Under the pieces are notes generated by a model that worked only from the letters and a program-made list of their open reading frames with translations, had not been told where the DNA came from and did not search any database. A stretch of DNA of 64,000 nucleotides, taken from NCBI RefSeq assembly GCF_053078305.1, contig NZ_CP166879.1. One strand, written 5' to 3'. The number at the start of each line of letters is the position of its first letter. Position 1 is the first letter of the stretch. This document shows positions 33,860 to 64,000 of this stretch, piece by piece. The position numbers and the translations under genes were made by a program.

Positions 33860-33947
33860 GGAAGTGTGGCCGAGCGGTTGAAGGCACCGGTCTTGAAAAC
33901 CGGCGACCCGAAAGGGTTCCAGAGTTCGAATCTCTGCGCTTCCGCCA
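33860..33947 (+). tRNA. serT: tRNA-Ser (anticodon UGA), serT
   Basis: GGAAGTGTGGCCGAGCGGTTGAAGGCACCGGTCTTGAAAACCGGCGACCCGAAAGGGTTCCAGAGTTCGAATCTCTGCGCTTCCGCCA; long variable arm; CTTGAAA anticodon loop. Confidence 0.93.
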
Positions 33948-33953
33948 AACAAT

Positions 33954-33990
33954 CAAGGGGTTACCAAATGGTAGCCCCTTTCCTTTTTTT
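33954..33990 (+). terminator. serT rho-independent terminator
   Basis: AAGGGGTTACC-AAAT-GGTAGCCCCTT hairpin followed by TCCTTTTTTTGC. Confidence 0.75.
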
Positions 33991-34087
33991 GCTCTTAGTA
34001 TACACTTGGTATACTAATTGGTATATTTAGCTCAATACACACTAGGTACATTGTTCTCTTTACGATTTATCGCTATACCGATGAATT

Positions 34088-34417
34088 ATGAATAACCCCA
34101 ATCCATGCATGACGTGTGGTGCCTGTTGTGCATTTTTCCGCGTCTCTTTTTACTGGGCAGAAGCTGACGATGCTGGCGGAAAGGTTCCGGTCAGTCTCAC
34201 TGAGCAAATATCCCCCTTTCATCGCTGTATGCGCGGCACCAGTCAGAAAAATCCCCGATGTGTCGCTCTGGCGGGAACTCCGGGTAAAAACGCATATTGC
34301 TCTGTTTACAAAAACCGTCCGTCCACGTGCCGGGAATTCGCAATGTCCGGAGAAAATGGCATCGCAAATGAAGCATGCAACCGCGCCCGGGCAAAATACG
34401 GACTTCCGGAAATCTGA
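34088..34417 (+). CDS. YkgJ-family (CxxCxxCC) putative metal-binding protein
   Basis: 109 aa [31 protein letters not shown]...; only plus-strand gene in the insertion, between serT and tfa. Confidence 0.7.
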
Positions 34418-34545
34418 AAAATCATCCATATCAACAGGATGCACGAAAAATGAGAGTTCCATCACTTCCGGAATTAACTTTTCCGTGGCACTATTTACTC
34501 GGCATAGTGTATATCTTCACAATAATGACATAATCAACGCAGTTC

Positions 34546-34577
34546 ATGGGGGAGGTGATGGTCCCCCATCTTTTTGT
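34546..34577. terminator. hairpin terminator between convergent ykgJ-like gene and tfa
   Basis: ATGGGGGA-GGTGATGG-TCCCCCAT followed by CTTTTTGT on the plus strand. Confidence 0.6.
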
Positions 34578-34580
34578 CTG

Positions 34581-35252
34581 TTATTCCTGTGCCCAGCCAA
34601 CCCTGTATGCCAGGATCTCATCCGCACTGCTCAGCGATTCCAGGTCCTTCTTCATGGTGCGCTGGCGAATGTGGATTTCCATCCCTTTGGTGAACATCGC
34701 CTGCTCTGCCGCTTCACTCAGCGCAATAAGCTCTTCTGCTGTCACCGGCACATCATTGTTTTCCGCATCCGTCCAGAAAAACGCCTCCGGCAGTTTCCCC
34801 GATTTCGCTGCCGCCACCGACGGCTCAAGACGCGTCTGCGTTGACTTCCCGTAGTCCCATTTACGCCCATTGTGCTCAAACGTGTAGTTCGCCGCTTCCA
34901 TCGCATTACGCCAGGCGTTAATTTCATCGCCCTTCATCCCTCGCGCTTTCTCCGCGGTCAGCAGGTCCGTGATTTTCTCCCCGTCAAAACCCCAGCGCCC
35001 CGAGATGTCAGCTTTGCGGTTTTCTTCCGTATCCGCCACCTCCACCACACTCTGGCCCACTGGCCACAGAACTGATGCCACCCTGCTGATGCCGGTAATG
35101 ACTCCGGCACTGTTATAAACCACCTTCAGCGTCTCTGCTGAAAATAACGACTGACACTCATACCAGTCCTGACCATCCTCTGATTTCAGGTACATCGCAC
35201 CCGGCACATCCGGATTTTCCGGCGTGTATTGTCTGAAATTCTTTATGTGCAT
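34581..35252 (-). CDS. tfa: tail fiber assembly protein (Tfa family)
   Basis: 223 aa immediately downstream of stf; N-terminal VVY..G.I.GISR....SVVEV.D...NRKAD.SG.W.F pattern typical of Tfa/gpG chaperones. Confidence 0.7.
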   Translation of the reverse strand: MHIKNFRQYTPENPDVPGAMYLKSEDGQDWYECQSLFSAETLKVVYNSAGVITGISRVASVLWPVGQSVVEVADTEENRKADISGRWGFDGEKITDLLTAEKARGMKGDEINAWRNAMEAANYTFEHNGRKWDYGKSTQTRLEPSVAAAKSGKLPEAFFWTDAENNDVPVTAEELIALSEAAEQAMFTKGMEIHIRQRTMKKDLESLSSADEILAYRVGWAQE

Positions 35253-35293
35253 CTGTAAGTCCTCCCGGTTACATGTCTGAAAGATGATGCGCT

Positions 35294-61440: not shown

Positions 61441-61480
61441 GGGATTTTCTCGTCGAAAGGTGTGATTAAGAAAGTTGCAG

Positions 61481-61660
61481 CTAAATGAGCGGCTCTTCGG
61501 GTTTGCTTCCGGCTGACTGACTGGCGCTGATTTTCTCTGCGGCCCTTTTATCAATCTGCCTGCGCCAGAAATCGCGCACTGCCCTGTACCCACCCGAAAG
61601 AAGATACAGCACACAGACCGCCGTACAGAAGTACAGCATCACCTGATGAATAAATGTCAT
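61481..61660 (-). CDS. hypothetical 59-aa membrane protein
   Basis: Hand translation MTFIHQVMLYFCTAVCVLYLLSGGYRAVRDFWRRQIDKRAAEKISASQSAGSKPEEPLI; below track cutoff; weak SD; coordinates approximate. Confidence 0.35.
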   Translation of the reverse strand: MTFIHQVMLYFCTAVCVLYLLSGGYRAVRDFWRRQIDKRAAEKISASQSAGSKPEEPLI

Positions 61661-61798
61661 AATTTCTTACCGTTATGGTTGACAATAAAAACTGTTTTCA
61701 TTTAAAAAACAACCGATGTACGAAAGCATCTTTTCTTTACATTCTCCATTGGGATTACCTCCGCCAGCTTCCATTCCTGCCGCTGGCGGCTTTTTTTA

Positions 61799-63766
61799 TC
61801 ATGCCGCGACGTCCGCGTTGTTCACTTCCACCTTCACACTGTCAATCAGCAGCGTATATGCCGCCGCCTTTGATATGTCTGTCAGTTGCAGTTTGTCCGC
61901 CGACCCTGATGCCGGAGATTTCACCAGTGTGAACGGTGTACCCCGTTTCTCATCCAGTACCGGCATCACCTGAATGCTGTTGTTTCCGGCAAACTCAAAA
62001 GCCAGTGTGTGCCATCCGTTATCAAAGACCCCGAACGTATCCAGCTTCGCATTCTGCTTCTTGTGGTACATCGCGTTCAGGTTCGTCGCATCCGTCTGCA
62101 GGAAGAAGGACATCAGCATGTCGTTGCCTTCCTCTGACAGCGTCACTCCCTCCGGCAGGGACGGCAACTGCCAGTAAATACCCAGGGCAAACTGATTCGG
62201 CACCAGTGCGCCCGGCACCTTAAACCGCACGCTCACACGTCCGCCTTTCTTCAGCAACTCTGCTCCCTGCCCGGCGGCATCATGCTCCAGAAACCAGATG
62301 TGGCTTTCCGGTTTGTTCAGTTGCAGGGCCTTACCACCGGTGGCACCCTCATCACTGACCACAGCCTCAGCGATGTTTTTATCAACACTGTCTCCGCTCG
62401 CCGGTTTGTGATAATAGCGCCAGCCCTGTGATGCCAGGTCTTCACCGGACGCCAGCAGACTCATCAGGGTTCGGTTACTGACCGGGGCTTCCGGCTCTCT
62501 CTCCGGGCCTTCACCGGAAGGTCCGGTGGGCTTCACCGTATCAGGCTGTTTTCCGGTAATGAATTCAGCGGTTCTCCCGGCATGCACCAGAATCGCCGTT
62601 GCCAGACGGTCGGAAATAATCCCACGGCGTGCCCAGGTGCTGAAATGGCTGGCCCTGTCCACAGATGTCCAGGTCTTCTGGTCATTACGCCACTTTGAAC
62701 CGTAATAACCGACGGCTTCCAGGTCCGGGTCTTCTGCCGGGTCATTGGTCTGCACATTCGCACCATTCTCATCCGTCATTAACGGTACAAAGAAAATGTT
62801 CTGCGACTCCTTACCCTTATACCCTCCGTATACTGATGCATACCCTTCCGCATGACGCTGCTTCCAGAAATACGTTGTGTCCCCGCAAATCCACGGTACC
62901 GTTGATGCGCTGCCTCCTGTGCACTGTGATGCCTGACCGGCAAGGTCCGTTCTGAACTGATTCACCATCGCACTAAACAGCCCCGGATGCTGCGCATGCG
63001 TCCCCACTGCCGCATCACCTTCTCCCTGCATCCACACCACCGCAAGCAGACGGTTTTTCGGGTTCTTCGCCAGTGCGGCTTTAGTCCGGCTCACCAAATC
63101 CTGATACAGCGGCTTACCCACACCCCAGCGCAGTGAATTTTCCGATGCACCGGCTGATTCGCTGTATGTGCCGTCTGCACCCGTTGTGAATGCCGAAGCA
63201 CCACGGCAGCACGGAACCAGCAAAATGCCCGCATTCGCCGGTATAAACGGCAGCAGTTTTTTGGCGATATGCAGCCCCTGCCCCACGGTTCCGTACTGCC
63301 CCTTTGACAGGTCCGCTTTCGGATGGTTAAGACGGCTCATGTCCTGCACATCATGCAGACAATGGTCCGCCGGAATAATGTCGTTATACTTACAGGCGGC
63401 ACCGCCCGGTGTCACCGTACTGCGACGCGCCAGCTGCTTAATACGCGGGTCCGGACGGTCATATGTCTCCGGCAGCGGAAGGCCTTCACCATACGACATG
63501 CCGTTTGACTGCCCCGCCAGAACAACAACAAAGTAATACTCCGGTTCGCTGGTGGCGCTGATAACTGTGCCTTCTCCATCCGACGGCTTCACCACCACAG
63601 GTGTGGTGACATCACCTTCCGCCGCAATAGCCTGCATCAGGGTATAAGGCGTGATGGCCACCGGACTGCCAAATGGCTGCCACCCCTCCTTCAGTTTTTG
63701 AGTCAGTCGCTCCGCAAGGTCTGACGGCGACGCCGCCCTGACCACGTCATAGTGTTTAAATGCCAT
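61799..63766 (-). CDS. prophage NanS-p-type sialate O-acetylesterase (SGNH/SASA domain)
   Basis: 655 aa; esterase motif VVLAGQSNGMSYG; GGGAGG SD; located upstream of the lysis genes where Stx phages carry stx and nanS-p. Confidence 0.8.
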   Translation of the reverse strand: MAFKHYDVVRAASPSDLAERLTQKLKEGWQPFGSPVAITPYTLMQAIAAEGDVTTPVVVKPSDGEGTVISATSEPEYYFVVVLAGQSNGMSYGEGLPLPETYDRPDPRIKQLARRSTVTPGGAACKYNDIIPADHCLHDVQDMSRLNHPKADLSKGQYGTVGQGLHIAKKLLPFIPANAGILLVPCCRGASAFTTGADGTYSESAGASENSLRWGVGKPLYQDLVSRTKAALAKNPKNRLLAVVWMQGEGDAAVGTHAQHPGLFSAMVNQFRTDLAGQASQCTGGSASTVPWICGDTTYFWKQRHAEGYASVYGGYKGKESQNIFFVPLMTDENGANVQTNDPAEDPDLEAVGYYGSKWRNDQKTWTSVDRASHFSTWARRGIISDRLATAILVHAGRTAEFITGKQPDTVKPTGPSGEGPEREPEAPVSNRTLMSLLASGEDLASQGWRYYHKPASGDSVDKNIAEAVVSDEGATGGKALQLNKPESHIWFLEHDAAGQGAELLKKGGRVSVRFKVPGALVPNQFALGIYWQLPSLPEGVTLSEEGNDMLMSFFLQTDATNLNAMYHKKQNAKLDTFGVFDNGWHTLAFEFAGNNSIQVMPVLDEKRGTPFTLVKSPASGSADKLQLTDISKAAAYTLLIDSVKVEVNNADVAA

Positions 63767-63865
63767 GAATCCTCCCGGTCGGGATAATGTTGTGAGTCAG
63801 ATAAGGGGCGGGCTGAAGTCCGGAAGTTACAGGACAATGGCAGGAGGAAGACTACAGCCCGCAAT

Positions 63866-63892
63866 ACGAAAAAGGCCGCGCAGTTGCGCAGA
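63866..63892 (-). terminator. tR'-like intrinsic terminator upstream of the late genes
   Basis: Minus strand CTGCGC-AACT-GCGCGG followed by CCTTTTTCG. Confidence 0.45.
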
Positions 63893-63963
63893 GTGATTAC
63901 TGTCGGGTATTATTCGCCAGCTGAAAAATTGATTACTTCACGTTTTGTTGTTTATTCCTTGCT

Positions 63964-63992
63964 GCCCGCATCTCACCATGCGGGCTTTTTTT
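63964..63992 (+). terminator. terminator-like hairpin at window end (orientation ambiguous)
   Basis: GCCCGCAT-CTCACC-ATGCGGGC followed by TTTTTTT on the plus strand, A-run on the other side. Confidence 0.4.
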
Positions 63993-64000
63993 ATCCATAA

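Follow-up and report, generated by a model that had tools for sequence, protein, structure and literature searches.

The DNA analysed here, referred to as the window, is a stretch of 64,000 nucleotides from contig NZ_CP166879.1 (assembly GCF_053078305.1), in which a run of core genes ends at the serine tRNA gene serT and is followed by phage sequence. This sequence very probably belongs to a temperate lambdoid phage of about 50 kb, with the attachment (att) and integrase (int) type of the Sakai prophage Sp4, integrated in serT by site-specific recombination of the Campbell type. The counterpart of Sp4 in strain EDL933 is CP-933M. Within the window we see the boundary between host and phage, a block of sequence identical in the attachment sites, the late gene order of phage lambda in a region that appears to be intact, and a ykgJ-like gene that came with the phage. 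The coordinates of the features are collected in Table 1.

The junction lies within serT

We have aligned the junction in the window with attB of K-12, attR of strain FHI_NMBU_10 and attP of the free Escherichia phage Evi (LR597642.1). A block of 62 bp is identical in all four, and begins in the 5' arm of the anticodon stem of serT. To the left of the block the window is the same as K-12 and attR the same as attP, while to the right the window corresponds to attP and attR to K-12. This swapping of the flanks is the Campbell pattern. There is one copy of the block in the window, and two in strain FORC_069, lying 46,427 bp apart. Scanning the window revealed neither an integrase gene nor a second serT 3' segment.

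Placement of the insertion at the serT-yccA junction, made in the initial annotation, is borne out, with the site in serT itself. The phage/host border had been set at 33860, and this must be moved into the tRNA gene, within 33888-33949. The att core had been considered undecidable from the window; the four-way alignment now supplies the identity block, and strand exchange would have occurred somewhere within it. The crossover cannot be read more finely than these 62 bp because all four sequences are identical there. Integration into tRNA genes and a class of att sites centered on the anticodon have been described (PMC4383910), and as the block starts in the anticodon stem the site is assigned to that class.

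The tRNA gene encodes tRNA-Ser(UGA). It is the only tRNA that ARAGORN reports in the window, it also matches the Rfam tRNA family, and it is identical to K-12 serT in 88 of 88 nt. Past the sequence GCCAAA the window follows the version of the terminator found in the phage attP, and not that of K-12. An intact serT with the phage version downstream is what is found where a target tRNA gene is regenerated by sequence carried on the element. The terminator scan places the phage copy of the serT terminator hairpin at 33955-33980, followed by a T run. The phage thus brings its own version of the serT terminator, which is why the BLAST match to K-12 fades out only at 33992.

The P' arm beyond the block is also of phage type, with 95.7% identity between 33888-34028 and the Evi attP. 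It contains the motif TTGGTATA at 34006 and 34018, spaced by 12 bp, with a near-copy (TTAGTATA) at 33995. The exact motif occurs three times in the 64 kb, twice in the P' arm, and is also present once in the P arm of attP and of attR; these are candidate arm-type binding sites for Int. A phage-type arm lies beside serT in 742 of 5426 complete E. coli genomes (14%). With the Sp4/Evi-type block and P' arm beside serT, and the tail-fibre end proximal, the element belongs with the serT prophages of the Sp4 type.

A simple model of integration would account for this arrangement. As in lambda, attP would have int on one side and the tail-fibre/cargo end on the other. It would hold a duplicate of the final 60 nt of serT, spanning the anticodon stem through the 3' end and directed away from int. 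A tyrosine integrase would exchange strands within the identity block, most probably in the 7-nt anticodon loop between the inverted stem arms CGGT and ACCG. The bacterial 5' part of serT would become joined to the phage 3' copy and the phage terminator, creating an intact tRNA gene at attL, and int would be placed about 50 kb away at attR. The serT segment of Evi does point away from int, and the intact tRNA is therefore expected beside the cargo/tail-fibre end, with int next to the displaced serT fragment and yccA. The earlier observation that the tail-fibre end rather than an integrase adjoins the 3' end of the tRNA gene is matched by the same order in FHI_NMBU_10, FORC_069 and Sakai Sp4.

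The late region has the lambda gene order

All the substantial open reading frames (ORFs) between 34581 and 63766 lie on the minus strand, and naming them by Pfam family gives the lambda late order. With increasing coordinate this reads tfa-like, stf, hok, J, I, K, L, M, H, T, G, V, U, Z, FII, FI, E, D, C, B, W, A and Nu1. Beyond Nu1 there follow Rz, an N6/N4 DNA methylase, the R lysozyme, a DUF1327 protein, a holin of the P21 type, a DUF826 protein and an esterase with SASA, DUF1737 and DUF6645 domains. Each of the lambda late ORFs matches its lambda-specific Pfam family over nearly its full length, and from J through A the DNA is 85% identical to phage lambda isolates. The translation start of J is likely to be a GTG near 40970. 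Upstream of Nu1 there is the lambda cohesive end (cos), and at the 3' end of G we find the G/T slippery heptamer GGGAAAG at 46651 on the minus strand, both as matches at the level of sequence. Holin, endolysin and Rz are all found in the lysis cassette at 57450-61172. The description of a full lambda late gene order in the initial annotation is therefore literally true from Nu1 to J and the tail fibres, by Pfam, cos and slippery site. From 34 kb onwards the GC skew is strongly negative, at -0.08 to -0.2 for the remainder of the window, which is consistent with transcription of the phage from one strand.

We have considered whether this could be a defective remnant, a block of late genes left by decay rather than an inducible prophage. 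Many serT prophages are degraded. Sp4 has insertion sequence (IS) elements and a disrupted head/tail region, and FORC_069 and FHI_NMBU_10 carry frameshifted J, capsid or tail-fibre genes. In the window, however, the late genes from Nu1 to tfa are all ORFs of full length, covered completely by their Pfam families, with no frameshift and no IS element in the late region, and the cos end, slippery site and lysis genes are all present. We consider a remnant unlikely, though to be kept in mind. It would affect only the viability of the phage, and leaves the identity of the feature unchanged.

Several parts of this region differ from the standard lambda arrangement. Between J and stf, the place of lom in lambda and Sp4, there is a hok/sok system; its sok RNA scores 63.5 bits in Rfam, over the gathering score. 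The N6/N4 methyltransferase gene (311 aa) lies between R and Rz, within the lysis cassette, with a 4-nt overlap between its stop and the start of Rz. This arrangement is found in 8 of the 5426 genomes, and is absent from the closest relative of the late region. Between the holin and the lysozyme there is a 328-aa protein with a DUF1327 N-terminus, matching phrog_1085 (unknown function), that is far longer than the 75-aa DUF1327 proteins annotated there in related prophages. The esterase matches the annotated yjhS/9-O-acetyl esterase of Shiga toxin (Stx) phages, in which the gene lies directly downstream of stx. Upstream of the esterase gene, at 63950-63990 on the plus strand, a GC-rich hairpin followed by a T run (GCCCGCATCTCACCATGCGGGC TTTTTTT) resembles a terminator. 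It is on the opposite strand to the late genes and is kept in related prophages.

Table 1. Features of the serT junction and of the prophage in the window.
Feature	Coordinates	Strand	Basis or comment
serT, intact, regenerated	33860-33947	+	5' part bacterial; 3' part may be phage-derived
att identity block, 62 bp	33888-33949	+	serT nt 29-88 plus AA; CGGTCTTGAAAACCGG...CTTCCGCCAAA
Phage P' arm of attL	33950-34087	+	Copy of serT-terminator hairpin; repeated TTGGTATA motifs
ykgJ-like cargo gene, 109 aa	34088-34417	+	CxxCxxCC metal-chelating domain, Pfam PF03692
Terminator-like hairpin and T run	34546-34578	+	Between convergent ykgJ-like and tfa-like genes
Tail fibre assembly/tip protein	34581-35252	-	Pfam (DUF4376, Caudo_TAP); phrog_11571, tail fibre
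Side tail fibre, stf-like, 572 aa	35294-37012	-	Pfam phage_tail_N, collagen and fibre repeats
hok/sok type I toxin-antitoxin	37155-37442	-	hok ORF 37155-37295, Pfam HOK_GEF; sok RNA 37284-37442
J, tail tip/host specificity	37494-41021	-	Longest ORF; six J-specific Pfam domains
Tail module I, K, L, M, H, T, G, V	41212-47789	-	Pfam
L	42544-43242	-	Pfam
M	43242-43571	-	Pfam
H, tape measure	43568-46180	-	Pfam
T	46161-46574	-	Pfam
G	ends 46601	-	Pfam
V	47040-47789	-	Pfam
Head-tail joining, head and packaging module, U to Nu1	47797-56819	-	Pfam; 85% DNA identity to lambda isolates; U, Z, FII, FI and D also present
E	49564-50592	-	Pfam
C	51034-52539	-	Pfam
B, portal	52529-54121	-	Pfam
W	54118-54324	-	Pfam
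A, terminase	54308-56293	-	Pfam
Nu1	56208-56819	-	Pfam
cos cohesive end, GGGCGGCGACCT	56931-56942	-	Exact lambda match, sequence level only; upstream of Nu1
Lysis cassette with inserted morons	57450-61172	-	Pfam, PHROGs
Rz	57450-57917	-	Pfam
N6/N4 DNA methylase	57914-58849	-	Pfam; small ORFs between this gene and R
R, lysozyme	59342-59875	-	Pfam
DUF1327 protein, 328 aa	59912-60898	-	Pfam, PHROGs
P21-type holin	60903-61172	-	Pfam, PHROGs
DUF826 protein	61195-61614	-	Pfam
nanS-p-like carbohydrate esterase, 655 aa	61799-63766	-	Pfam DUF1737, SASA, DUF6645
Esterase upstream region; prophage runs off window	63767-64000	-	99% identical to stx-negative prophages

The far end of the prophage

For int, xis, attR and the absence of stx we turn to relatives and to an overlapping contig of a near-identical genome. 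There are three complete relatives sharing the attL type (FHI_NMBU_10, FORC_069 and Sakai Sp4), with prophage lengths of 46.4-49.8 kb, and all end in the order exo-xis-int-[serT 3' fragment]-yccA. FHI_NMBU_10 reads serT-ykgJ-tail fibre...exo-DUF4224-int-yccA, with the displaced serT 3' fragment at its attR. FORC_069 gives the same reading from serT to yccA, with stx2a upstream of the esterase. In the relatives yccA is intact at attR, and next to attR lies the gene for an integrase of 339 aa (Pfam Phage_integrase). The integrases of FHI_NMBU_10 and FORC_069 are one protein with the same accession, 95% identical to the Sp4 Int.

An exact 70-mer from the end of the window led us to an IMG/VR contig, UViG_2617271340_000013, that matches window positions 54001-64000 at 99.99% with one indel, and stops 137 nt past the end of the window. 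A second contig from the same genome, UViG_2617271340_000006, overlaps it by 3.7 kb. Sixteen columns of the overlap differ; 13 of these are deletions of 1-2 nt within short runs, and what look like substitutions in the other three adjoin a 2-nt indel. From the overlap the second contig runs through a methyltransferase gene in the stx slot, two tRNA-Arg genes, a tRNA with a CAT anticodon, a second methyltransferase and Q, and it ends 23.3 kb along in an Int that is 100% identical to that of the serT prophages. There is no stx on this contig. An early region with Q and with replication, immunity, recombination and int-xis genes is found on the overlapping contig of a genome 99.99% identical to the window and in all the complete relatives; in the window itself it is absent. 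The expectation that int and the second junction would be more than 30 kb from serT, beyond the window, is supported by the spacing in the three complete relatives and by the Sp4-type Int on the overlapping contig. We also considered that the two IMG/VR contigs might be paralogous copies of the prophage, which is less likely, the differences in the overlap having the signature of read errors and not of divergence.

Should both contigs come from a single locus, the prophage would have a length of about 49.8 kb and be stx-negative, for which the support is strong but indirect. The window stops 234 nt upstream of the esterase gene, and the closest match for that end is strain FHI_NMBU_11 at 99%, while the esterase region of FORC_069 is only 81-89% identical. 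The presence of stx just beyond the window is disfavoured. The most likely continuation is a methyltransferase dependent on S-adenosylmethionine (SAM) in the stx slot, unlike FORC_069. The slot, from the tRNA cluster to the esterase, holds a SAM-dependent DNA methyltransferase in UViG_2617271340_000006 (3800-5700) and in FHI_NMBU_11 (34390-35660).

Some points weigh against this account of the far end. The link between the contigs rests on an overlap with differences resembling read errors and not on a closed assembly; attR, int and the early region of this very genome lie outside the window; and the window differs from the IMG/VR contig by one indel. Moreover, lambdoid prophages in genomes resembling those of Shiga toxin-producing E. 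coli (STEC) often recombine with one another, and an inversion or tandem array could lie beyond 64000. The window could then contain a true attL at serT in an element rearranged by inversion or deletion with another lambdoid prophage, or in a tandem prophage, with int and yccA elsewhere. The mosaic late and lysis regions are 92-99% identical to prophages at other positions (potC in strain Z1323MEC0001, and FHI_NMBU_11), providing ample homology; tandem prophages at single sites have been reported in STEC (PMC8767318); and the IMG/VR assembly breaks exactly within such a shared segment. Yet all three complete relatives examined are simple prophages running from serT to int and yccA, and the integrase on the overlapping contig is the right one and lies as far away as expected, with differences in the overlap that look like read errors. 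Rearrangement is for these reasons very unlikely in our view. For the integration model, we are highly confident that in this genome a simple attR next to yccA will be found beyond 64000.

A ykgJ-like gene at the prophage end

The first gene inside the junction is ykgJ-like, and is the only gene of the prophage part on the plus strand. Its product is 83% identical in amino acid sequence to chromosomal YkgJ of K-12, whose gene is at 0.30 Mb. Strain Z1323MEC0001 has the same allele (98% DNA identity) in a potC-integrated prophage, directly inside its potB-proximal junction, and the similarity between the two loci starts exactly at the ATG. Occurrence of the same allele in prophages at serT and at potC indicates that the gene moves with the late/cargo module, independently of the att module. 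Alleles of at least 90% DNA identity are found in about 130 of the 5426 genomes; in most genomes the chromosomal ykgJ has about 81% identity. A search of PHROGs found no family matching the protein. The gene is phage cargo. Its ownership had initially been called undecidable from the window, and the allele in the potC prophage together with the 83% identity to chromosomal YkgJ now assigns it to the phage.

A promoter-like site (33999-34027) precedes the gene and a terminator (34546-34569) follows it. The promoter-like site overlaps the candidate Int arm repeats. The ykgJ-like gene may be expressed in the lysogen. If it is expressed from the prophage end, the host would gain another metal-cluster protein, diverged from its own, and expression of the gene might depend on the state of integration. 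That the paralogue is a lysogenic-conversion gene and, as a separate matter, that stx is carried beyond 64000, are possibilities we regard as improbable.

Relationship to known prophages

Sakai Sp4 (NC_002695.2, 1161092-1210882; 49.8 kb, annotated as "prophage Sp4, lambda-like phage") occupies the same yccA/serT site in the same orientation, reading yccA-int-xis-exo...lambda heads...tail fibre-tccP2'-espV'-serT. It has lambda-type head genes (terminase, W, portal, C, D and E) like those of the window, and its Int has 95% identity with the integrase of those serT prophages that share the attL of the window. It differs in having the effector pseudogenes espV' and tccP2', lom and sodC where the window has the ykgJ-like gene and hok/sok. 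Copies of IS629 and ISEc8 interrupt Sp4, while the late region of the window is uninterrupted, and the morons of the lysis regions differ.

The Stx2a serT prophage of FORC_069 (NZ_CP023061.1) is identical to the window in the attL arm over 308 nt (100%), has the same ykgJ-like gene, and has the same order, serT-ykgJ-tail fibre...esterase...Q...exo-xis-int-yccA. In contrast to the true lambda head genes of the window, its head is of the HK97 type with a protease-capsid fusion, and it has stx2a upstream of the esterase. Phage Evi shares attP, with the 62-bp serT block and the closely similar P' arm, and has the order exo-xis-int-attP-cargo-tail fibre-lom-J. Its attP cargo, however, is a fragment of espV and not ykgJ, its genome is 40 kb, and we detected no similarity to the window outside the att region. 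With lambda itself the window has in common the late order from Nu1 to J, the cos end, which is identical, and the G/T frameshift site; the DNA is about 85% identical between J and A, and attP is placed between the tail-fibre/b region and int. The attB of lambda, by contrast, lies between gal and bio with a 15-bp core and no tRNA gene; its int/att module is unrelated in specificity; lambda has lom in place of hok/sok; and in their lysis and Q-proximal regions the sequences of the window belong to the Stx-phage/P21 type.

The prophage as a whole is found in none of the complete RefSeq E. coli genomes, and look-ups of the esterase and of the 328-aa DUF1327 protein by exact sequence returned no record. 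The best record has 90% coverage at 96.7% identity and is a potC-integrated relative, the late region of the Z1323MEC0001 potC prophage being the best match to that of the window (96.7%). FHI_NMBU_10 and FORC_069 have HK97-type heads despite sharing attL and ykgJ, while the lambda heads of the window are common to the potC prophage and Sp4. This mosaicism of head and att is ordinary exchange of modules between lambdoid phages.

The serT site in other strains

Prophages have been described at this site under two names. Among the prophage sites of O121:H19 is serT (PMC8767318), and an Stx2f prophage is reported to be inserted downstream of serT in an E. albertii strain from a wild bird (PMC10673567). 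The same locus, named yccA, is reported as the site of Stx2a, Stx2e and Stx2k prophages, with a link to Sp4 (PMC9431244, PMC9453080, PMC8065619). Integration into yccA or the serT-yccA intergenic region, with the tRNA gene as a mere neighbor, would suit that name and the similarity to K-12 of about 89% for some 45 nt beyond the tRNA gene, but it is rejected on the att alignment as most improbable, given that the attP of free Evi contains 60 nt of serT, that the same segment is displaced at attR of the relatives, where yccA is intact, and that past GCCAAA the window has the phage terminator.

The serT site, the orientation and the att/int type have all been described, and this prophage is another mosaic of known modules. 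What is gained is correct annotation, with the left boundary placed within serT, the ykgJ-like gene assigned to the phage, and int, attR and yccA predicted at about 50 kb from serT. The site is of practical relevance through its use by the Stx2a, Stx2e and Stx2k phages. In a strain where it is taken up by a phage that is probably stx-negative and whose late region appears intact, the site is blocked, or there is homology for recombination with incoming Stx phages. If stx were carried beyond 64000, this would be an Stx phage with a genuine lambda virion module. None of these implications amounts to new biology, and they have little import beyond annotation.

The host side of the junction

Comparison of K-12 1031000-1072000 with the whole window by BLAST gives two colinear blocks, 1-15799 (97.4% identity) and 15791-33992 (98.5%). 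The shared genes run from inside agp through yccE, cbpAM, tor, yccM, csp, gfc/etk, app and hya to serT, in agreement with the reported K-12 synteny from agp through hyaA and serT. In this part the sole break is a 768-bp IS1D present in K-12 only. To the right of 33992, where similarity to K-12 stops, there is no match to the yccU-yccA side of K-12; neither yccA, which is therefore not in the window, nor any other core gene was found in 34000-64000. In K-12 no gene lies between serT and yccA.

The two alignment blocks overlap by 9 bp because of the target duplication by IS1 in K-12. At 15791-15799, between gfcA and cspH, the window has the empty IS1D target, with a single copy of the 9 bp. Two stretches of the core are of low GC content (0.42-0.43), at 1-2000 (agp/yccE) and 14001-16000 (cspH/cspG-gfcA). 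Both are colinear with K-12, and are therefore not insertions particular to this genome. Finally, Rfam identifies a cspA-type thermoregulator 5' untranslated region at 14618-15040 on the minus strand, in the cspG/cspH region, and naRNA4, a small RNA derived from repetitive extragenic palindromes, at 3857-3935 on the plus strand; both are ordinary K-12-like features.

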